From Candidatus Saccharimonadota bacterium (GTDB taxonomy: Bacteria > Bacteroidota > Bacteroidia > Flavobacteriales > Blattabacteriaceae), in the NCBI RefSeq assembly GCF_964030875.1, contig NZ_OZ034981.1:210001-242000 (forward strand): 32,000 nucleotides of DNA, read 5' to 3'. How positions within the stretch are numbered: the stretch's first letter is position 1; each line of letters opens with the position of its first letter. The translations under genes were made by a program, and so were the position numbers. This document shows, in pieces, positions 1-20,372 of this stretch. The notes under the pieces were generated by a model, which saw only the letters and a list, made by a program, of their open reading frames with translations, was not told the origin of the DNA and did no database searches.

Positions 1-265
1 GATTTTTAAATAAAATTAAGTGAATTAGCCAATACTCTCATAGTGTTGAAACTTTTTTTTGCTAACACAATGTTATTAGCTTTTCCAGAATATTTGTGGT
101 AAGACCTTTGGCTTGAAAAAAAGCAGCATTTATTAATGTTCTTTACCGGGAATATTCTATTCAGCTACGGATTTTTTAAAAACTGCCTCTCATGCTGTTG
201 TCCTATATAGATATTCCTTGGGCATACTATCGCTTTTTTTTAGAAGTATTGACAGGTTTTGGTTC

Positions 266-378
266 GGGATATTTCGACAGTCTTAGTGGACTGGGATATT
301 TCGACAGTCTTAGTGGACTGGGATATTTCGACAGTCTTAGTGGACTGGGATATTTCGACAGTCTTAGTGGACTGGGAT
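266..378. repeat. Perfect tandem repeat, 27-bp unit gggatatttcgacagtcttagtggact x4 plus 5 nt
   Basis: Counted directly: units at 266, 293, 320 and 347. It is in frame (GYFDSLSGL x4) inside the N-terminal ccoN fragment. Confidence 0.97.
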
Positions 379-890
379 TTTTCATGTTGCTAGGACGTGT
401 TTTTAAGATGATAACTTATCGTTATCTAGCTTTTGACAGAGATTATAAATCATTTAAGAATTCTTTCGGTATGTTAGGTTATGGACGTTGGAGAATGCTT
501 CATACTAATACCGTTGTTTTTGCTTTTGTAGTAAATATAATTTTTACAGGCTCTTACTATTCTTTACAACGTTTATTGAAAACAAGAATGTTCAGCGATG
601 GATCAATTTTTATGGATGGCAACTTCTGATTGTACTCACCTGGATTACTTATCTACTGGGAATAAATACCAGTAAAGAATACGCTGAACACGAATGGCCA
701 ATAGACATACTAATTGCTATAGTATGGTGTATTTACTACGGAAATATTATTGGTACACTCTTAAGAAGAAGAGTACAACATCTGTCTGTTTCAATATGGT
801 TTTTCCTGGGTAGCTGTTCTCGTATTGCACATTTATTGCGATTCCTATAGCTCTTAACTCACTTAATAGCTATTCTATTTATGCCGTAGT

Positions 891-922
891 GGTCCAATGG
901 TGGTATGGTCCAATGGTGGTAT
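891..922. repeat. Perfect 16-bp tandem duplication ggtccaatggtggtat x2
   Basis: 891-906 equals 907-922. It duplicates the codons of the conserved CcoN VQWWYG motif; 16 nt is not a multiple of 3, so it shifts the frame. Confidence 0.95.
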
Positions 923-1980
923 GGGCACAATGCTGTGGCTTTTATTTTGACCACACCGATACTTGGGTTGATATCCCTAGGTAAAGCCTGTTTTCTCTTA
1001 TAAATTATCTATTATTCATTTTTGGTCACTAATTTTCGTTTATATCTGGGCAGGTCCTCATCATTTAATGTATACCTCTCTTACCGGTTGGGCACAGATG
1101 CTCAATGGTATAAAGTAAGAGAGAATCCAATCCGAAAATTTTTATCAGTGACCTGCTATGGAATGGCTACTTTCGAAGGTCCCATGCTGGCTACTAAGAC
1201 ATTAAATTCCATCGTACATTTTCCCGACTGGATAATTTCACATGTAGGAACTTTGGTATGGAACGTCTTTATGGCATTTGGAGTTATCTATTGGCTAGTT
1301 AAGCGATTATATTCTCCAACATTAGCGAATATCCATTTCTGTATGGTAACTATTGGGATAATTTTTTATGTCATTCCGCTTTATTGTGGAGCTGTTATAC
1401 AAGCTTCGATGTGGAAAGAATTCAATCCGTACGGAACACTTGTGCACAAAAATTTTCTTGATACTGTAACAGCTATAGTTCCTTTTTACAAACTTCGGTT
1501 GATAGGTGGTATACTGTATTTTACAGGAGTTGTCATAATATTTATCCGAATCGTCCGATTTATCGCAAATGAACCTGCATAAGCTGTTTCTTTAAGAGAT
1601 AATTTCAACAACATAAACTTTAAAAATCATCCCTGGATCCCTAACAAAAACCAATTAAGTTTACTATATTATCTATCATTGTAGTATCTATTGGAAGCAT
1701 AGTAGAAATCATCCCTACGTTAATAATTTAGATCTACAATATCAAGTGTTAAACCTTATAGTCCTCTAGAATTATAGGGGAGAGATCTTTATATCCGTGA
1801 AGGTTGTATCACAGACCATTCATAGATGAAGTAGTACGTTATGGTGAATATTCTAAAGCAGGTGAGTTTGTTTCTTTGGGGTTACAAACGTACAGGTCCC
1901 GATTTAGTAGATCCCAGTTCTTGGCATTTAAAACATATGTCTAACCCTAGATCTACTTATCCTGGATCTATTATGCCGAG

Positions 1981-2086
1981 ATATCCTGGGTTGATATCCT
2001 GGGTTGATATCCTGGGTTGATATCCTGGGTTGATATCCTGGGTTGATATCCTGGGTTGATATCCTGGGTTGATATCCTGGGTTGAT
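1981..2086. repeat. Perfect tandem repeat, 13-bp unit atatcctgggttg x8 plus 2 nt
   Basis: Units start at 1981, 1994, ... 2072. The first unit is the native CcoO ..PRYPWL codons, so the array is seeded in coding sequence. Confidence 0.97.
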
Positions 2087-6238: not shown

Positions 6239-6284
6239 GAATTTATATTTATAGTTAGAAATATAAACATGGGGATATTTATTG

Positions 6285-6648
6285 TGGAGTTGGCGGGATT
6301 CGAACCCGCGTCCATACAAGTAATTTGTAAGATTTCTACATACTTATCTCCTCTTGTAAACCTACAATAGAAGAGGAGCATTCTATTGAGGAATTATCCT
6401 TTTAGTTTTCAAAGGTTTCCTAGCTTTATTTTACGGTACCTCTTAATCATAAATTATAAAGCGGAATTTATGAGAGATATCTTGCTTCGGCAGATTATGC
6501 CGACGTGGCTTTAAATTTTTACTTAAGCAGCAAGAGCATAGTTTTCTTCGCCGGTTATATTTTGTGACGCTAGATTTTCGTGTTTACCTCACGTTACACG
6601 GTATGCTTACTTACTTATTAAGCTTGCTGTCAAAACCATTTCAACCCC
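6285..6648 (-). ncRNA. ssrA: tmRNA (SsrA), one-piece, about 364 nt
   Basis: The minus strand starts GGGGTTGAAATGGTTTTGACAGC (6648 downward). It ends GGACGCGGGTTCGAATCCCGCCAACTCCA (T-arm, acceptor, discriminator A at 6285; CCA not encoded). The acceptor pairs GGGGTTG/CAACTCC with the G3:U wobble. The tag frame ggc gaa gaa aac tat gct ctt gct gct taa encodes GEENYALAA* (6552-6523). Confidence 0.95.
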
Positions 6649-6923: not shown

Positions 6924-7053
6924 AATAAAGTCATTCATCGTCCAGCTTCAATAAAGTCATTCATCGTCCAGCTTCAATAAAGTCATTCATCGTCCAGCTT
7001 CAATAAAGTCATTCATCGTCCAGCTTCAATAAAGTCATTCATCGTCCAGCTTC
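6924..7053. repeat. Perfect tandem repeat, 26-bp unit aataaagtcattcatcgtccagcttc x5
   Basis: Units at 6924, 6950, 6976, 7002 and 7028, all identical. Confidence 0.97.
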
Positions 7054-7171
7054 TATAGTGAAATTCTATTGCTATCGCTTTTTTACGAGGGAGGAGGTAA
7101 CGCTTTCTGAATTTTTTTCAGCTCTAACTTTGTAGATACTCCAGAAGAAGTGGTCACTAGATCCATTGGTT

Positions 7172-9510: not shown

Positions 9511-9596
9511 TTTACAAAGTGATTTACAAAGTGATTTACAAAGTGATTTACAAAGTGATTTACAAAGTGATTTACAAAGTGATTTACAAAGTGATT
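9511..9596. repeat. Perfect tandem repeat, 12-bp unit tttacaaagtga x7 plus 2 nt
   Basis: Units at 9511 through 9583. The array fills most of the 137-bp divergent spacer between the ABC-F start (9479, minus) and the smpB start (9617, plus). Confidence 0.97.
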
Positions 9597-9616: not shown

Positions 9617-10054
9617 ATGAAAACCAAAATTGAAAATAGAAAATCTCGTTTTGAATACGATATTTTAGATGAATATACGTCTGGAATACAGTTATTAGGA
9701 ACAGAAATAAAATCAATTAGACGGAATAATGTTTCTATTTCTGAGAGTTTCTGTAAAATGAAAAATAAAGAGCTTTACGTTATAAATATGTATATTTCAA
9801 AATACGAATGGGGAACGCATATTAATCATGATGTTAGAAGAGAGAGAAAGCTTCTCTTAAAGAGATCAGAGTTAAAAAAACTTGAACGTAAACTCAAGGA
9901 GTATAATTTAACTCTAATACCTAAAAGACTTTTTATAAACGATAAAGGACGTGCTAAGCTTAAAATTTTTTTAGCAAAAGGAAGAAAATATTATGATAAA
10001 CGCAATATTATCATGAAAAGAGAAATGGAGAGACGTAGAGATGATTTTTTTTAA
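9617..10054 (+). CDS. smpB: SsrA-binding protein SmpB
   Basis: 145 aa. NRKSRFEYDILDEYTSGIQLLGTEIKSIR and the basic C-terminal tail are typical of SmpB. Confidence 0.94.
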   Translation: MKTKIENRKSRFEYDILDEYTSGIQLLGTEIKSIRRNNVSISESFCKMKNKELYVINMYISKYEWGTHINHDVRRERKLLLKRSELKKLERKLKEYNLTLIPKRLFINDKGRAKLKIFLAKGRKYYDKRNIIMKREMERRRDDFF

Positions 10055-10065
10055 AATATTATAGA

Positions 10066-10200
10066 GGGAGATTTCATCCAGTAAAATTAAAGGGAGATTT
10101 CATCCAGTAAAATTAAAGGGAGATTTCATCCAGTAAAATTAAAGGGAGATTTCATCCAGTAAAATTAAAGGGAGATTTCATCCAGTAAAATTAAAGGGAT
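10066..10200. repeat. Perfect tandem repeat, 26-bp unit gggagatttcatccagtaaaattaaa x5 plus 5 nt
   Basis: Units at 10066, 10092, 10118, 10144 and 10170. The reverse complement encodes the tatC ..PLILLDEIS.. segment. Confidence 0.97.
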
Positions 10201-10563
10201 GGTAGCAATAAACATGCTTATTATATCTGAAGGAGTGATAGCATAATTAAAAAAGCGTGTTTTCAACAATTTTGTAGTAATTAGACCGATTTGGGTTAAA
10301 AAAAGTAGGATCTATTACTATAGAAATATAAAAATGTTTTCAGGTAAATAACTTAGACGAAAGCTCTTGCTAAATTGTATCCACAAAATAAAACTAAAGC
10401 AGACAATATAATTTCGTTCTTGTTACGAAAGTCCAGGACGTATCAAACTACAAATTTCATCAAAAATCTAAGGAAGAGCTAGGATGATTATAAAACTTCC
10501 CCATAAATAAGTATTAAATTGTCCTAAAAGTTTAGTGTTTTGTATCTGTAGATTCAGAGATCT

Positions 10564-10613
10564 AATCATTGGATTATTTTGATGGATCAAATCATTGGAT
10601 TATTTTGATGGAT
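10564..10613. repeat. Tandem duplication, period 26 bp (aatcattggattattttgatggat, 24 of 26 nt identical)
   Basis: 10564-10587 equals 10590-10613. On the minus strand it duplicates the tatC codons IHQNNPMI and introduces a stop. Confidence 0.9.
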
Positions 10614-10815
10614 AACCCGGACCATTTTATTGAATAGACGATAACTAATAAAATTAGCTGGAGCAAAACCCACAATGATGCTTAGTAAAGCTATAAAAAC
10701 AGGTTTTCGTAATTCTTCAAGATGTTCCATAAATGGCATCGTAAAATATTCCATGAGACGGTCAGTTGGGAGAATTATTTACTCCGTGGGCTTTATAATC
10801 TTGTAAAAAATGACA

Positions 10816-11084
10816 TTAAAAAGAGGAGATGAAAGCATCCTTATAAAAAATTTGTAAGTCTTCAATACCTTCACCTAATTGATCATTCCTCCTTTAAAAA
10901 CACGTGGATCAGTTTTTTAATCACTTATGTACGGCAGTATATACATAAATCTGCTGACGGCTGCTGCACGAAAAGTATCGTATGCTCCTCCTCACCCCAG
11001 GTCGGTAGAAACCGTCTGTATACACGATTAGGGTACATTACTTTTGTTTTTCCTGCTATAAACCGCTTTAGTTTTTTGTAACCC
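10816..11084 (-). pseudogene. ftsY: Signal-recognition-particle receptor FtsY, about 270-bp remnant
   Basis: Minus-strand fragments read GLQKTK (about 11084-11066), DTFRAAAV (10979-10956) and GEGIEDLQIFYKDAFISSF* (10875-10816). No P-loop GxxGxGKT remains. The DTFRAAA-to-GEGIEDL spacing is about 80 nt against roughly 500 nt in intact FtsY. The position after rpmB-rpmG-DUF4295 matches the usual Bacteroidota operon. Confidence 0.8.
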
Positions 11085-11086
11085 TC

Positions 11087-11236
11087 TCATTTCTTGTCAA
11101 AAAAATCATTTATTTTATTATCTGGAACTATTTTTTCTTCAAAAACATAAGTTCTTGATTTGATTGACTTAATCAGACGTATAACTTTTGTCATTTTTTT
11201 ATATACATTATTTTGTAACACAGTTTTTTTTGCCAT
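11087..11236 (-). CDS. Small conserved protein, DUF4295 family (49 aa)
   Basis: Hand translation: MAKKTVLQNNVYKKMTKVIRLIKSIKSRTYVFEEKIVPDNKINDFFDKK*. It starts 1 nt after the rpmG stop. It is below the 60-aa cut-off of the ORF track. The MAKK.. start, the K.K...Y.F core, and the position after rpmB-rpmG match the DUF4295 genes of Bacteroidota as I recall them. Confidence 0.75.
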   Translation of the reverse strand: MAKKTVLQNNVYKKMTKVIRLIKSIKSRTYVFEEKIVPDNKINDFFDKK

Positions 11237-11237
11237 T

Positions 11238-11420
11238 TTATTTAATTTCTTTATGAATAGTGTATTTTCTTAGAATAGAGTTATATTTTCTTAATTCTAT
11301 TCTATTAGGCGTATTTTTTTTATTTTTTGTACTAAAATAACGAGAGATCCCTTTTTTTCCACTTTTCTTATGTTCAGTACACTCCAGAATTATTTGGATT
11401 CTATTTCCTTTTTTTACCAT
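11238..11420 (-). CDS. rpmG: 50S ribosomal protein L33
   Basis: 60 aa: [21 protein letters not shown]...[34 protein letters not shown]. Confidence 0.95.
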
Positions 11421-11423
11421 TTT

Positions 11424-11660
11424 TTATTTTATTAGTCTTTTTTTCCTCGAACGTTTAAGTGCCTCTTCAATTCCTATAGTATTCACCGTTCTAATTCCAG
11501 CTGCAGATATTTTTAACAAAATCCATCTATTTTCTTTAGGAAGAAAGAATCTTTTTTTTATAATATTAATATTAAAACGACGTTTAATTTTATTATTAGC
11601 ATGAGAAACTTTGTTCCCTATTAGAACTTTTTTACCGGTTATTTTACAAATTTTTGACAT
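11424..11660 (-). CDS. rpmB: 50S ribosomal protein L28
   Basis: 78 aa: MSKICKITGKKVLIGNKVSHANNKIKRRFNINI.. Confidence 0.95.
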   Translation of the reverse strand: MSKICKITGKKVLIGNKVSHANNKIKRRFNINIIKKRFFLPKENRWILLKISAAGIRTVNTIGIEEALKRSRKKRLIK

Positions 11661-11726
11661 TTTAAATCTTTTTTTTATTTCGGATTATTTAAATAACAGC
11701 TGCATAAGCTTTTTAATGAATAAATT

Positions 11727-11823
11727 CCATTATGCAATCCATTATGCAATCCATTATGCAATCCATTATGCAATCCATTATGCAATCCATTATGCAATCC
11801 ATTATGCAATCCATTATGCAATC
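11727..11823. repeat. Perfect tandem repeat, 12-bp unit ccattatgcaat x8 plus 1 nt
   Basis: Units at 11727 through 11811. It lies 67-163 nt upstream of the rpmB start (11660, minus) and before the yidC remnant. Track ORF 11611-11826 (HYAIHYAI...) is just its translation. Confidence 0.97.
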
Positions 11824-12710
11824 TAAAAAAATAGATTATTATTTACTTATAGTGACTATAATTTCAATATTAATAGTCTTTTTTTGTTTCAATGAAATTG
11901 GGTAGAAAAATATACAGTTATCAAATAAAAAAACTATTTGATTCTCTCCCAATAAATATGGGGAAACTATTTGAAGAAGAAAATGATATGATTAGTATAA
12001 AAATATCTAATCTTGGGGTGGGGGGAATATTAGTGAGATCTTTCTCAAGAAGTATAATACTTCTAACGATAAAATATTACGTTTAGTAAAGACGAAAAGT
12101 TTCACTTTTGGTATAAATATGATAACTCTTTCTGGTTTATAGTAATGATCCCCCTAATCTGCAAGAAACTCCCTATCAATACATCTTAACTATGAAAACA
12201 ATTTTTCATAACGTAGGGGAATTATTCATTCCCGAAAGAAAAATCATATTAGGCAAATTTGTCCATTACTAGTCGAGGTCTTTGTTCTTAATAATGCTAT
12301 TTTTTTTAATTGTAAACATAAATTAATTGGTTTGGAAAATAATTATACACAAATGTGTTATTCTTATGGAAAGAATAAAAGAATAAAAAAAGAAATTGTC
12401 TAGCTAATAAACAACAATTTTGTACTAAAAATCCTTTTAAAACAACGAAAATTCAATAAAAAATACTGACATCACCATTTGATATTAAATGGTGTTCTAT
12501 GTTTTCTCCATTAGTTTATAATGAACTTAATTGTAAGGCAAAGTGGGATTTTGTTCCATTAAAGTATAATCTTCTTAAGAAGTATGGTGATAATTTTGAA
12601 GATCTTATCCCATTTGGTTGGAGTATTTTGATCAAAAACAAAGTTTAATTATTATAGTAAAACTTATATTATTCCCCATTACTTATTGGCAATGTAAATT
12701 CATTGCTATA

Positions 12711-12785
12711 ATGAAAATTATACGTTATGATATAGAAGAACTGAATGAAAATTATACGTTATGATATAGAAGAACTGAATGAAAA
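12711..12785. repeat. Perfect 34-bp tandem duplication atgaaaattatacgttatgatatagaagaactga x2 plus 7 nt
   Basis: 12711-12744 equals 12745-12778, inside the yidC remnant. Confidence 0.95.
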
Positions 12786-12968
12786 ACTTAAATCTGCAGA
12801 TAAGCAACAAGCTACTATAGAATTTTATAAAAAAATCGTAATAAATCCAATGTCTGGATTTTTTATGCACTGTTTCAATTTTTTTAAAAAGATTATTAAT
12901 CTTCGAGGAAAATCATTTCTTTGGGCTTATGATTTAACTTATTACGATTCAGTATTTCATCTTCCTAT

Positions 12969-12998
12969 CCCTATTTATCCCTATTTATCCCTATTTAT
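12969..12998. repeat. Perfect tandem repeat, 10-bp unit ccctatttat x3
   Basis: Units at 12969, 12979 and 12989, inside the yidC remnant (IPIYPYLSLF region). Confidence 0.93.
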
Positions 12999-13181
12999 GG
13001 AAATCATGTTAGTTTATTTTATATTGTATACAAAGTTTAGTCATATAAATAATTACGTTCAAGTAAATAATAATAATATTTCATGCCCATAATAATGCTT
13101 TTATTTAATTATGCTTCCGTACTTTCATTATATTATATAAAATCTTTTGAATATTATGTTTATATATAAGGGAATAATATT

Positions 13182-15017
13182 ATGAATAAAAACAAATATT
13201 TTTTTTTTCTCTCAGGTTTCCTGATTATTTTGGGAATATTTCTTTTTCAATATTTGGTCTTTAAAAGACAACAGATTTCTCCAGATTTTTTTTTTAAAAT
13301 CCTTTCTGAAAAAAGAGTTCAGAAAATAATTATAACAAATCACTCTAAAGCCATCATATGGGTTTATAAAAAAAATATAAAAAATAAAAAATATCTTTTA
13401 TATACAGATTTTGATCATTATGAATTAACTATAAATAATTTTCCTTTTTTTTCTAAAAAGATTGAAGAATATAAATATCTCTATAAATTAAATCTCATTC
13501 TTCTTTTAAATAATCAAAAAGAATCTAATTTTAGCAAAACTGTCATTGAATCCGTATTCTTTTTTTTCCTCTTTGTAATATTCTGGGGATTCATATTATC
13601 TCGTATAAACGTAGGTTCTGGAAAACATATATTTAATATTGGAAAGTCTAAAGCTAAACTTTTTGACGAAAACGATAATGTTAAAATTACTTTCCAAGAC
13701 GTAGCTGGGTTGGAAGGAGCAAAGGAAGAAATCCAAGAAATTGTTGACTTTCTAAAAAATCCTAATAAATATACTAATTTAGGAGGGAAAATTCCTAAAG
13801 GTGCGCTTTTAGTTGGACCTCCAGGAACAGGGAAAACTCTTTTAGCTAAAGCTGTTGCCGGAGAAGCTCAAGTCCCGTTCTTTTCTCTTTCTGGATCTGA
13901 TTTCGTAGAAATGTTTGTTGGAGTAGGTGCTTCTCGCGTTAGAGATCTTTTTAAACAAGCTAAGGAAAAATCTCCTTCCATTATTTTTATTGATGAAATC
14001 GATGCGATAGGACGTTCTAGGGTAAAAAATAATATTAATGGAGCTAATGACGAACGTGAAAATACCCTTAATCAGCTACTTACAGAAATGGATGGTTTTG
14101 ATACCAATACTAATGTTATAGTGATGTCTGCCACCAATCGTTCAGAGATTCTTGATCAGGCACTTTTACGTCCTGGACGTTTTGATCGTACTCTTTTTAT
14201 AGATCTTCCAGAACTAAATGAAAGAAAAGAAATTTTTTTAGTACATATTAAAAAATTAAAAATTGCAAAAGATATAGATATTGAATTTTTATCTCGTCAA
14301 ACTTCTGGGTTTAGTGGTGCTGATATAGCGAATATATGTAATGAATCTGCTATTATAGCAGCTCGTCAAGAAAAATCAAAAATAGAATATCAAGATTTTT
14401 TAAGTGCTATAGATAGAATTATTGGAGGATTTGAAAAGAAAAATAAAGTAATAAAGTTAGCAGAAAAAGAAAGAATAGCTTATCATGAAGCAGGTCATGC
14501 TGCTATTAGTTGGTTAATTGAACATGCGGCTCCTCTTGTAAAAGTTACTATTGTTCCTAGGGGAAAATCTTTAGGAGCCGCTTGGTATCTTCCAGAAGAA
14601 CGTCAATTAACTACTTTTGAACAGATGCAAGATGAAATTTGTGCTTTATTAGGAGGACGGGCTGCTGAACAAGTAATATTTAAAACTATTTCTACAGGTG
14701 CTTTAAACGATTTAGAACGTGTTACTAAACAAGCACAATCTATGGTAACAATTTTTGGATTAAATAAACGTATTGGTAATATTTCTTATTATGACTCTAC
14801 AGTTAAAAACGAATCTGCTAAACCCTATAGTGAAAATACTGCCAGAATTATTGATGAAGAAATTTCTAAAATTATTGAAGAACAATATCAACGTGCATAT
14901 AAATTATTAGCTAATAATCGTGTAAAACTTAAAAAATTAGCTAAGAAATTACTTGATAAAGAAGTTATCTTTAAAGAAGATCTTGAGGAAATTTTTGGAA
15001 ACAGACCTTTTCCATAA
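13182..15017 (+). CDS. ftsH: ATP-dependent zinc metalloprotease FtsH
   Basis: 611 aa, with two N-terminal hydrophobic segments, AAA+ Walker [19 protein letters not shown], Walker [13 protein letters not shown], and the zinc site HEAGHA. Confidence 0.96.
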
Positions 15018-15023
15018 AATATT

Positions 15024-16925
15024 TTATTTAACTTCTTCAAAATCGACATCTTGAACATTTTTACTCTGAGTATTAGATGCGGAAGTATTTTTACTCTGAG
15101 TATTAGATGCGGAAGTATTTTTTTGAGCAGTATACAATTCTTGTGAAATACTGGTCCAAATATCTGTTAAAATTTTTGTAGTCCTGTCTATTTCATAGAA
15201 ATTTTTTGAAGCCCGAGCATTTTTAAGCTGTTGTAAAATATCTTCTATTTTTTTCTTATTCTCTTTTGATAATTTGTTTTCGGATTCTTTAATCTGTTTT
15301 TCAGTTTGAAAAATTAGTCCATCCGTAGCATTTAACTTATCAATTTCTTCTTTATATTTTCTGTCTTTATCAGCATTTTCTTGGGCTTCTCGTTTCATTT
15401 TTTCAATTTCTTCTTGACTTAATCCTGAAGAAGCTTCAATACGAATTGATTGTTCTCTATTAGTACCTTTATCTTTAGCTGAAACGTTTAAAATACCATT
15501 GGCATCAATATCAAAAGTTACTTCTATTTGAGGTCTTCCTCTAGGAGCTGGTGGTATATTAATTAAATCGAACCGGCCAATTTCTTTATTATCTTTGAAA
15601 AGAGATCGTTCACCTTGTCCTACTCGAATAGTTACAGCTGGTTGATTGTCAGAAGCAGTAGAAAATGTTTCTGATTTTTTTGTTGGTATAGTTGTATTAG
15701 ATTCTATTAATTTAGTAAATATTCCACCTAAAGTTTCTATACCTAAAGAAAGTGGTGTGACATCCAGGAGAAGCACATCTTTAATATCTCCAACAAGAAC
15801 TCCACCTTGAATAGCTGCTCCTATAGCTACAACTTCGTCAGGATTAACACCTTTTGAAGGTTTTTTTCCAAATAATTTTTCTACTTCAGCTTGAATTTTT
15901 GGAATTCGTGTAGAACCACCTACTAAAATTACTTCATCAATATCTTTAATTGCATCTAATCCAGCAGATTCTAATGCTTTTTTGCAAGGTTCCATGGAAC
16001 GACGAATAAGACCATCTTCAAGTTGTTCAAATTGAGCTCTAGTAATAGTTTGTACTAAATGTTTTGGTCCAGAAGAAGTAGCAGTAATATAAGGTAAATT
16101 AATTTCAGTTTTTAGTCCTGAGGAAAGTTCGATTTTTGCTTTTTCAGCTGCTTCTTTTAAACGTTGATGAGCCATAGGATCTTGTCGAAGATCAATACCT
16201 TCTTGAGATTGGAAACTCTTTACCAAGAAATTAATAAGAATATCGTCAAAATCATCTCCTCCTAAATTGGTATCTCCATTTGTAGAAAGTACTTCAAATA
16301 CGCCATCACCTAATTCTAGAATAGAAATATCGAAAGTCCCTCCTCCTAAATCATATACTGCGATTTTTTTATCATGTTTCTTTTTATCTAATCCATAAGC
16401 TAATGCTGCTGCAGTAGGTTCATTAATTATGCGTTCTACTTTCAATCCTGCAATTTCTCCAGATTCTTTAGTAGCTTGTCTTTGTGAATCATTAAAATAT
16501 GCAGGGACAGTGATAACTGCACGGGTAACTTTCTGTCCAAGATAATCTTCAGCAGTTTTCTTCATTTTTTGTAAAATCATTGCTGAAATTTCTTGTGGAG
16601 TATAAATTTTTTTATCTATATCGACTCTTGGAGTATTATTAGGACCTTGTATAACCTTATATGGCACCCGATTTATTTCAGTAGAAAGATCCGAAAATGT
16701 TGTCCCCATAAACCGTTTTATTGAAAAAATAGTTTTTTTAGAATTAGTAACAGCTTGTCTTTTAGCTGGATCTCCGATTTTTATTTCTCCTTCTTCAACA
16801 AAGGCTACCATAGATGGAGTAGTTCTTTTTCCTTCAGAATTAGGAATTACTATAGGATCATTCCCTTCCATTACTGCAACACAGGAATTGGTTGTTCCTA
16901 AATCTATACCAATAATTTTATTCAT
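15024..16925 (-). CDS. dnaK: Molecular chaperone DnaK (Hsp70)
   Basis: 633 aa: [36 protein letters not shown]-terminus DVDFEEVK. Carries an in-frame 10-aa duplication near the C-terminus. Confidence 0.97.
15057..15122. repeat. Perfect 30-bp tandem duplication (period 30, about 2.2 copies)
   Basis: 15061-15090 equals 15091-15120, with matching flanks. It is in frame in dnaK and gives [20 protein letters not shown]. Confidence 0.95.
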
Positions 16926-19619: not shown

Positions 19620-20290
19620 TAATGTTCGTCCAAAAAATACTCTCTATAATTAAAGAAAGTGCTCAATTGGTTTACAAAACATTAGGAATGTTAACTTCAT
19701 AAATACAACCAGGTGTAACTACACTTTATTTAGATCACAAGGCCGAAGAATTTAGACGTTATCATGGCGGTATTCCAGCTTTTCTAGTACTTTATAATTT
19801 TCCCAATACATTATGCGTATCTACCAATGACATGGTATTCCCAATAAAAAACCTTTATCTGAAGGAGATATTGTGGGGTACTAATGAATGGATATTATGG
19901 TGATCATGCTTATACTTTTGCAGTAGGTGAAATATCTGAAGACCGAAAAAAAACTCATAGAGGTTATTCTCTATCCCGTGGTATCTATTCTTGTAGAATA
20001 GGGAATTGTACAGGAGATATTGGATACGCTATTCATAACTATGCAGAAAAATATGGTTCCGGTGTAGTTATAGAATACACGGATTAGTAAAAAAATCTAA
20101 TCCTCTGTTACCCAATTATGGAAAAAGAGGATATGATGGTCCTAGCTATTGAACCCATGATTAATCAGGGAACACCTAAGAGAATTAAAAAATATGATTG
20201 GACAATTATTACTAATAAGCCTTCAGTTCATTTTTAACATAATGTAGAAACCCAATTTTACTTTCTACATCTAAAACTATTCATTCTTCT
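19620..20290 (+). pseudogene. map: Methionine aminopeptidase type I, eroded
   Basis: Fragments in several frames: IIKESAQLVYKTLGMLTS*IQPGVTTLYLD..EEF, FPNTLCVSTND, IPNKKPLSEGDIV, MNGYYGDHAYTFAVGEISE (ORF 19884-20087), GDIGYAIHNYAEKYG, PNYGKRG, LAIEPMINQGT, DWTIITNKPSVHF*H. Deletions remove the IDCG and HGxG/HE metal-ligand regions. Confidence 0.85.
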
Positions 20291-20372
20291 GAAGAGGAAC
20301 CGACTATTAAACGTATTCTGCTCTTACTCGAGAATAAGTATAAATTCGTCATTTATTTTTAACAAAAATCTT

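Follow-up and report, generated by a model that had tools for sequence, protein, structure and literature searches.

Relics of tatC, ftsY and yidC within 3 kb of a Walczuchella genome, decayed as part of its genome-wide erosion

The window analyzed here is a stretch of 32,000 nucleotides in which three genes for membrane-protein targeting and insertion, tatC, ftsY and yidC, are present as relics. On sequence evidence, the source genome is that of Candidatus Walczuchella, a flavobacterial symbiont of the cottony cushion scale Icerya purchasi (genome ICPU, 288,943 bp; Choi et al. 2025, Mol Biol Evol, PMC12188211), and the FtsH encoded in the window has 100% identity to the NCBI entry for FtsH from the Walczuchella symbiont of I. 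purchasi. The locus and its surroundings comprise the following features.

1-2000, plus strand: cbb3 oxidase pseudogenes, pieces of ccoN (COX1) and ccoO (FixO) in three frames
10060-10754, minus strand: tatC pseudogene, recognized by Pfam, tblastn and DNA alignment with L083
10065-10199, minus strand: 26-bp tandem array in tatC, 5.2 perfect copies (TRF)
10559-10613, minus strand: 26-bp tandem duplication in tatC, 2.1 copies (TRF)
10816-11084, minus strand: ftsY relic, recognized by tblastn, a shuffle test and synteny, about 28% of a 945-bp gene
11087-11236, minus strand: DUF4295 gene, intact ORF
11238-11420, minus strand: rpmG, intact ORF
11424-11660, minus strand: rpmB, intact ORF
11726-11823, no strand assigned: 12-bp tandem array TCCATTATGCAA, 8.2 perfect copies (TRF)
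about 12020-13145, plus strand: yidC pseudogene, recognized by tblastn against P0122 and L084, with a Pfam score below the cut-off
12710-12785, plus strand: 34-bp tandem duplication in yidC, 2.2 copies (TRF), unit encoding MKIIRYDIEELNE
12966-12998, plus strand: 10-bp tandem array in yidC, 3.3 copies (TRF), shifting the frame at IPIYGNHVSLF
13182-15017, plus strand: ftsH, open, 611 aa

A preliminary description of this DNA had placed the three dead genes within 10060-13092, with ftsH and dnaK intact nearby and a dead cbb3 oxidase at the window start. It was right on each of these points: the relics lie where it put them, with similarity beyond chance, ftsH and dnaK are open (611 and 633 aa), and ccoN and ccoO are in pieces across three frames. 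Intact rpmB-rpmG-DUF4295 (11087-11660) sit between the dead genes, with smpB and ftsH on the flanks, and RpmG is identical in the ICSE and CRMU genomes. The 12-bp array lies between rpmB and the yidC relic, in a spacer expected to hold the 5′ end of yidC, and its unit is absent from other lineages. With two hydrophobic segments near its N-terminus (22 and 16 residues), FtsH counts as a surviving membrane-protein client; no FtsH_ext Pfam domain was recorded for the FtsH of the window. Pfam searches took in the window apart from the minus-strand frames of 1-2790 and the spacers around RNA genes. Against Rfam, tmRNA and RNase P RNA pass the threshold in the window, and no SRP RNA does.

In one frame of 10040-10800 on the minus strand, the tatC relic matches positions 43-114 of the TatC profile (PF00902) with 32.2 bits and E=1.2e-7, above the cut-off of 25.1. 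Against the intact 275-aa TatC of L084, tblastn aligned residues 8-61 with 10739-10632 in frame -1 and residues 91-255 with 10521-10168 in frame -3, the latter with five in-frame stops and large internal gaps. Preservation of the N-terminus MEYFTMPFMEHLEELRK and breakage by stops and two 26-bp expansions had been described earlier, and Pfam, tblastn and TRF confirmed both. Beyond the five stops, the damage comprises at least one frameshift and several deletions, which measure 13, 40, 14, 6, 42 and 12 bp relative to sister lineage L083 in the DNA alignment. The longest tatC ORF is 55 aa, and no uninterrupted ORF of ~250-275 aa with six TM helices is found at the locus. The array at 10065-10199 derives from the last TatC codons, its unit encoding ...PLILLDEISL, which matches the end of TM6 (IPIVILYEVSI) by tblastn; this unit is absent from ENA contig L085, and the stretch lies outside Logan contig coverage. 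The unit duplicated at 10559-10613 is a single copy in L083.

The putative identification of the ftsY relic leans on collinearity and synteny. One block, GAYDTFRAAAVSR at 10988-10950, corresponds to residues 147-159 of Blattabacterium FtsY, and a second, GEGIEDLQIFYKDAFISSF (10819-10875), corresponds to residues 294-312 of 314 (both by tblastn) and is directly followed by a stop codon at 10816-10818. Each block is weak alone, at ~22 bits; the two are collinear, and both also match FtsY of PDB 6cy1. As a pair they score 43.5 bits against 27.4 ± 3.8 (maximum 38.1) for dinucleotide shuffles, none of 1000 reaching the observed value, where the statistic is the best collinear pair; chaining all HSPs instead did not discriminate, as 65 of 1000 shuffles then scored as high as the relic. 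No frame of the relic matched the SRP54 GTPase domain (PF00448) or the N domain (PF02881) in Pfam at E≤10. In Blattabacterium (L087), an intact 314-aa ftsY comes right after rpmB-rpmG-DUF4295 on the same strand, and the relic fills the identical slot.

Within the relic, the G2 motif (GAYDTFRAAA) and the C-terminal GEGIEDL block are kept, and none of the three frames contains G3 (DTAGR) or G4 (TKxD). The stretch lost between DTFRAAA and GEGIEDL, first put at about 400 nt, comes to ~330 nt (~110 codons). The reduction of the gene to ~270 bp with its native stop in place is upheld, but not the reported lack of a P-loop: a degenerate remnant of G1 (GxxGxGKT), reduced to AGKT, survives at 11045-11056, and its distance of ~19 codons upstream from GAYDTFRAAA equals the native one. 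The N domain (~118 codons) is deleted, with ~8-10 codons left from the DUF4295 stop to the P-loop relic. Since this relic lies ~10 codons past the DUF4295 stop in L083 and L085 as well as in the window, the N-domain deletion appears to have been early and common to the three lineages.

For yidC, a tblastn search with a 370-aa YidC (P0122) gave E=1.7e-17 over 12511-13041 and 38 bits over 12645-13145, and a piece of the P1 domain was located at 12020-12127. The Pfam score for 60KD_IMP, 25.3 bits, is below the cut-off of 35, and homology is clear by tblastn. The TM core (12511-13145) is spread over two frames, with at least seven in-frame stops and internal deletions; the pieces overall fall in three frames, and no continuous ORF holds the N-terminal TM, the P1 domain and the five core TMs. 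Both tandem expansions shift the reading frame, and the 34-bp unit is a single copy in L081-L083. The earlier account of a yidC full of stops, with two expansions and a lost 5′ end, is accurate, the N-terminal ~100 codons including TM1 being undetectable; the 3′ end it also gave as lost lacks the C-terminal tail only, and homology extends to about 13145 (NYASVLSLYYIKS, last core TM). With the stitched YidC relic as query, three matches were returned, the YidC of the Llaveia symbiont (LLAX) not among them.

Short ORFs persist in these relics, and they could be taken to work still, as split or truncated proteins (a 115-aa YidC ORF at 12745-13092, a 55-aa TatC N-terminus) or by way of transcriptional slippage. 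For a few other genes, rescue through slippage at poly(A) tracts is mentioned by Choi et al. (2025), and one ICPU fragment of the YidC periplasmic domain is not flagged as a pseudogene (Choi et al. table). Residual function of this kind is nevertheless extremely unlikely. Both yidC ORFs (11892-12086 and 12745-13092) are mosaics of frames, and in the second of these IPIYGNHVSLF and ILYTKFSH, which share one frame in L083, stand in separate frames in the window. TatC has no uninterrupted TM2-6, FtsY is without its N domain, G3 and G4, and the ORF boundaries differ in every lineage.

The comparison across related endosymbionts that had been proposed as a check found the same three loci dead, with different lesions, in five other Walczuchella lineages: ICSE (L090), CRMU (L091), two Logan lineages (L083; L089/L092) and an ENA contig (L085). 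The lesions of tatC and yidC vary between lineages. These data bear on whether errors of sequencing or assembly have broken the frames of genes that are in fact intact, a suspicion encouraged by the error-prone nature of tandem arrays and homopolymers, and by the uneven read depth at repeats and the five pseudogene ends flagged as possible misassemblies by Choi et al. (2025). Such an explanation has next to no chance of being right. Deletions of a hundred codons, many stops and the loss of catalytic motifs go beyond what single-base errors produce, and ICPU coverage is 1,523x (Choi et al. 2025, PMC12188211). Because the same genes carry different lesions in these lineages, at least five and independently assembled, an assembly artefact can be ruled out.

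The three relics are unequally decayed, with 28% of the length left in ftsY and roughly two thirds in tatC and yidC. The death of ftsY seems to predate the split of the sampled lineages. In LLAX, yidC is intact, with tatC and ffh pseudogenized (Choi et al. preprint Table S2). Since yidC is intact there next to genes already dead, and since lesions are lineage-specific, the genes died at different times and not in a single coordinated event; we infer their order of death from presence and absence across lineages and from degree of decay. In other Flavobacteriales, tatC and yidC are located elsewhere (L084; L087). Searches by tblastn with all relic fragments against 80 loci of free-living Bacteroidota and some Proteobacteria, none with ftsY or ffh, gave no match.

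Three dead genes in 3 kb, together with six arrays between 9.5 and 13 kb (TRF), may suggest that one regional event, a mutational hotspot or a rearrangement, killed three neighbors, so that their clustering would be mechanistic and not functional. This is quite unlikely given the intact genes between and beside the relics, the LLAX yidC that is intact despite a dead tatC, and a far more advanced decay in ftsY than in the other two. The dead cbb3 region and other spacers have an equally high density of arrays, and dead genes elsewhere in the genome belong to the same functional categories. The proximity within 3 kb is inherited gene order common to all Walczuchella and has no meaning of its own, since the genes lie on different strands with intact rpmB-rpmG-DUF4295 between them and all seven genomes are collinear (Choi et al. 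2025, PMC12188211). The "coordinated collapse" of the preliminary description stands at the level of pathways, with SRP, YidC and Tat gone according to the published table, but not as one event or as a meaningful cluster.

The decay of the three genes is part of a genome-wide erosion published in 2025, and is a correct but ordinary finding. In all seven Walczuchella genomes, secretion and trafficking genes (COG category U) are mostly lost or pseudogenized, and categories U, M and C are the three most eroded; the ongoing genome-wide erosion in Walczuchella also affects envelope synthesis, the majority of respiratory genes and ATP synthase, and cbb3 and energy genes are eroded in ICPU (Choi et al. 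2025, PMC12188211). For ICPU, yidC is tabulated as one pseudogenized CDS; secA, secY and tatA are entered as intact, whereas tatC, ffh and lepB are given as missing, and no paralogs of yidC, ftsY or tatC are listed; ftsY is unlisted in every Walczuchella genome (Choi et al. preprint Table S2). No Walczuchella genome has an annotated secE (Choi et al. preprint table). That study covers the same genome and the same phenomenon at the level of annotated CDSs (Choi et al. 2025, PMC12188211); new here are the unannotated tatC relic in ICPU, the ftsY relics in all lineages and the degenerate AGKT remnant. Loss of SRP, YidC and Tat was already documented in ICPU and its sister genomes and fits standard late-stage endosymbiont erosion. 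The locus carries little weight as a discovery and is a clean illustration of how membrane-insertion genes decay. Relics as deep as that of ftsY, or of tatC in ICPU, escape annotation-based pseudogene counts, which biases the timing of gene loss when it is taken from CDS tables.

The locus very probably holds three independent pseudogenes decaying neutrally after relaxed selection on membrane-protein targeting and insertion. SRP targeting (ffh, ftsY) and Tat (tatC) would have lost function first, and yidC would have died later, separately in several lineages. Each inactivated relic would then shrink by deletions and meanwhile be inflated by local tandem duplications, which may arise by replication slippage in a genome without mutS (absent from ICPU in the published gene table, Choi et al.). 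Of the seven genomes, LLAX, DRPI and DRCO have mutS, and ICPU, ICSE, CRMU and CRGE lack it. Large membrane clients of the symbiont are dead too in the same window, namely the cbb3 oxidase, and what membrane proteins remain, the two-TM FtsH among them, may be inserted via SecA/SecY alone. Sec-only insertion of the remaining membrane proteins is the most likely route, as we infer from the published annotation of secA and secY. How these proteins are inserted had been raised as a puzzle, and it is largely answered in print by the intact secA and secY and the lack of paralogs in the table, with the integrity of both genes in ICPU resting on that annotation. In sister lineage CRMU, SecY was seen directly, fused to IF-1 and downstream of rplO.

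Another possible source of the missing functions is the host or co-symbiont, which might supply an Oxa1/YidC-like insertase and SRP components at the symbiont membrane. Walczuchella probably resides inside a host-derived membrane, and its metabolism depends on host genes, including horizontally transferred ones, and on co-symbiont genes (Choi et al. 2025); the two-TM FtsH, moreover, stays open without SRP or YidC. Import is still very unlikely, considering that the client list is drastically shrunken, that FtsH itself is losing its membrane anchor in some lineages, that SecA and SecY, annotated intact, offer a simpler route, and that there is no evidence of protein import in the Walczuchella system. 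Walczuchella of Icerya would still make membrane-anchored proteins (FtsH with two TM segments, SecY) without SRP, FtsY, YidC, TatC and signal peptidase; that SecA/SecY alone are insufficient for this, and that host or co-symbiont factors for targeting and insertion are needed, is also unlikely. If true, targeting delivered by the host or co-symbiont would be an organelle-like dependency with a retention pattern opposite to that of mitochondria.

Loss of SecY and SRP/FtsY is usual in mitochondria, which almost always retain Oxa1, the homologue of YidC. Walczuchella ICPU reverses this pattern, with YidC dead and SecY and SecA kept according to annotation. As described in two accounts (PMC8662606, PMC8321541), mitochondria and plastids partly abandoned their export machinery (Sec, Tat, SRP, YidC) as the membrane proteome shrank, as here, and protein import sets these organelles apart from what is seen in Walczuchella. 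Uzinura diaspidicola, likewise a flavobacterial scale-insect symbiont with a similar genome size, is tabulated without Sec and without Tat (Rosas-Perez et al. 2014, PMC3971599). Its genes have disappeared altogether, whereas decay in ICPU is midway, with recognizable relics and with SecA and SecY annotated intact. To our knowledge, Carsonella, Hodgkinia and Tremblaya are likewise without SRP and YidC.

About 11% of the window's dead DNA consists of tandem arrays that are perfect and lineage-specific; such arrays, and their inflation of pseudogenes, are not discussed by Choi et al. (2025, PMC12188211). Walczuchella arrays have 9-34-bp units with nearly all copies perfect, lie in pseudogenes and spacers (the cbb3 region carries 27-, 16- and 13-bp arrays), are built from local coding sequence and differ between lineages. 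Logan contigs L081-L083, L089 and L092 are without tandem arrays, which is not read as biological absence, these contigs presumably being short-k assemblies able to collapse such arrays. Portiera from Bemisia tabaci, also an ancient insect symbiont, likewise has short tandem repeats, concentrated in intergenic DNA, which coincide with the loss of replication and repair genes and with no net deletion bias (Sloan and Moran 2013, PMC3673631). Its repeats peak at 7-bp units and accompany genome rearrangements, in contrast to the 9-34-bp units and collinear genomes of Walczuchella. In the relics, tandem duplication returns DNA while deletions remove it, and the share of dead DNA in arrays is a measurable signature of slippage that can be compared between Walczuchella with and without mutS.

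The window (G+C ~30%) holds the rpmB-rpmG-DUF4295 cluster typical of Bacteroidota and the S10/spc ribosomal-protein block. Genes for korA, glnS, an ABC-F ATPase, ftsH, dnaK and the ribosomal operons are intact, including the ftsH and dnaK that the preliminary description had reported as such. Other features used here are as follows.

Features of the window (coordinates, strand where given, description)
6282-6648, minus, tmRNA gene, intact, tag peptide GEENYALAA
7176-7476, plus, RNase P RNA gene, intact
9617-10054, smpB, open; a sister-contig orthologue matches Pfam SmpB
13182-15014, ftsH, intact
19640-20308, plus, map pseudogene with stops, frameshifts and small deletions

Three genes for membrane-protein targeting and insertion, tatC, ftsY and yidC, are dead, as had been proposed, and their homology, lesions and lineage specificity are established together with their co-occurrence with a cbb3 oxidase at the window start, also correctly called dead, since its ccoN and ccoO fragments are spread over three frames. 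For tatC, one frame of 10040-10800 (minus) exceeds the curated Pfam TatC cut-off (32.2 vs 25.1 bits, E=1.2e-7). In tblastn with the intact 275-aa TatC of L084, a reduced flavobacterial contig, residues 8-61 lie at 10739-10632 in one frame and residues 91-255 at 10521-10168 in a different frame, with five in-frame stops and large gaps. A 26-bp unit formed by the last TatC codons stands in 5.2 perfect copies, a second 26-bp unit is duplicated, and six further segments of 6-42 bp are missing relative to L083, a contig of one of two Logan lineages of Walczuchella.

In Blattabacterium (L087), a 314-aa ftsY immediately follows DUF4295; in the window, the space from the DUF4295 stop to the tatC start is only 332 bp. 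Just two blocks survive, collinear with the Blattabacterium protein: GAYDTFRAAAVSR (residues 147-159) and GEGIEDLQIFYKDAFISSF (residues 294-312), with a stop right after the second. Both also match FtsY of PDB 6cy1. The single blocks are weak, but their collinear pair scored 43.5 bits, which none of 1000 dinucleotide-shuffled sequences reached (mean 27.4 bits, maximum 38.1). The gene had been described as lacking a P-loop, which must be corrected: a degenerate remnant, AGKT, lies at 11045-11056, ~19 codons upstream of GAYD, the same distance as in the native gene, although the frame shifts by 1 nt between the two. Nothing is left of the N domain, G3 or G4. The P-loop relic lies ~10 codons past the DUF4295 stop in the window, in L083 and in L085 (a Walczuchella contig from ENA), and this shared position indicates that the N-domain deletion, hence the death of ftsY, is older than their split.

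The yidC relic scored 25.3 bits against Pfam 60KD_IMP, below threshold, and E=1.7e-17 over 12511-13041 in tblastn with a 370-aa YidC (P0122). After a change of frame, homology runs on to 13145 (NYASVLSLYYIKS), and a P1-domain piece was found by tblastn at 12020-12127. The relic carries at least seven stops, one 34-bp duplication and one 10-bp x3.3 array; its first ~100 codons are undetectable, and a 12-bp x8.2 array occupies part of their space.

The locus was compared in ICSE (L090), CRMU (L091), the two Logan lineages (L081-L083; L089/L092) and L085, and the three genes are dead in all of them. Every retrieved Walczuchella lineage has the order smpB, tatC relic, ftsY relic, DUF4295-rpmG-rpmB, yidC relic, ftsH, while the remaining length differs: L089 keeps TatC residues 6-260, L083 a 169-aa YidC ORF and CRMU only scraps. 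Such broken genes could in principle be an assembly artefact, which is ruled out by the identical order with different amounts left; the latter also shows ongoing, independent decay. An operon or joint event behind the 3-kb cluster was likewise rejected, because outside Walczuchella (L084, L087) ftsY is not adjoined by tatC or yidC, and the proximity is thus a by-product of Walczuchella gene order. The proposed coordinated collapse of inner-membrane protein biogenesis therefore stands at the level of the pathway, and its coordination and clustering do not.

The Walczuchella genomes, seven in all, are collinear and rich in pseudogenes, with envelope (M), trafficking and secretion (U) and energy (C) the most eroded categories; in ICPU, the Icerya purchasi symbiont genome to which the window belongs, 32 of 270 CDSs are pseudogenized (coverage 1,523x), and mutS, dnaB and dnaG are absent (Choi et al. 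2025, PMC12188211). The preprint's Table S2 gives for ICPU one pseudogenized yidC CDS plus two YidC periplasmic-domain fragments, three ccsA fragments, no tatC, ffh or lepB, and intact secA, secY and one tatA. For LLAX, the Llaveia symbiont genome, it gives tatC and ffh pseudogenes and an intact yidC; an ftsY entry is missing for every genome. An older comparison table has Uzinura without Sec and Tat altogether (PMC3971599). The finding is thus correct but known, and only the tatC and ftsY relics, which lack annotation, are added to the published record.

Genes for envelope and energy functions are eroding across the whole genome (Choi et al. 2025). Loss of large polytopic, cofactor-bearing clients probably relaxed selection on SRP and Tat and later on YidC, whose genes then became pseudogenes one by one; the simple membrane proteins that are left, among them FtsH with its two TM segments, are most likely inserted by SecA/SecY alone. 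No SRP RNA was found at the Rfam threshold within the window. The intact tmRNA and RNase P RNA and open smpB indicate that trans-translation was kept while SRP was lost.

FtsH anchor regions of sister lineages were compared with window 13182-13650. Both TM segments are kept in ICPU, ICSE and CRMU (TM2 of CRMU with a 3-codon deletion). TM1 and the periplasmic part are frameshifted or degraded in L083 (2925-3300), L089 (6300-6560) and L085 (8750-9130), where the ORFs (493-583 aa) start near TM2. The anchor may be eroding together with the insertion machinery, and its frameshifts in some sisters fit a continuing loss of membrane functions. In CRMU (L088, 11076-12662), the gene call downstream of rplO gives one 528-aa protein in which SecY is fused to IF-1 (Pfam SecY and eIF-1a), as noted by Choi et al. 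2025 (PMC12188211); the ICPU equivalent lies just past the window end.

Tandem repeats are not mentioned in that paper. The window contains eleven arrays (units 10-34 bp, 2-8 copies, identity 96-100%), their units derived from local sequence, and ten lie in pseudogenic or intergenic DNA, which makes up 24% of the window (binomial P=5e-6) and is 11% tandem array.

Tandem arrays in dead DNA
266-383
890-924
1980-2086
6924-7057
9511-9596, 12-bp unit, 7.2 copies, directly upstream of smpB/ABC-F
10065-10199, in tatC
10559-10613, in tatC
11726-11823, 12-bp unit, 8.2 copies, directly upstream of rpmB
12710-12785
12966-12998

One of these, a 26-bp x5.2 array, lies between the tmRNA and RNase P RNA genes. 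The pattern resembles that of Portiera (BT), where tandem repeats and microsatellites proliferated after repair-gene loss (PMC3673631), ICPU being without mutS. ICSE, CRMU (L091, L088) and L085 have other arrays at other sites in the same dead zones. Of the arrays with a 12-bp unit, the two longest stand in divergent spacers that could be promoter regions; the unit of the first is in single copy in L085. The eleventh array, an in-frame 30-bp duplication at 15057-15122 (minus), repeats 10 residues in the C-terminal tail of DnaK, which is intact otherwise, so the slippage process reaches live genes too, where tolerated; its unit is in single copy in L081-L083.

Methionine aminopeptidase is normally essential, and its gene, map, a pseudogene in the window, is in pieces in L081 and ICSE and intact (277 aa) in the lineage of L085.
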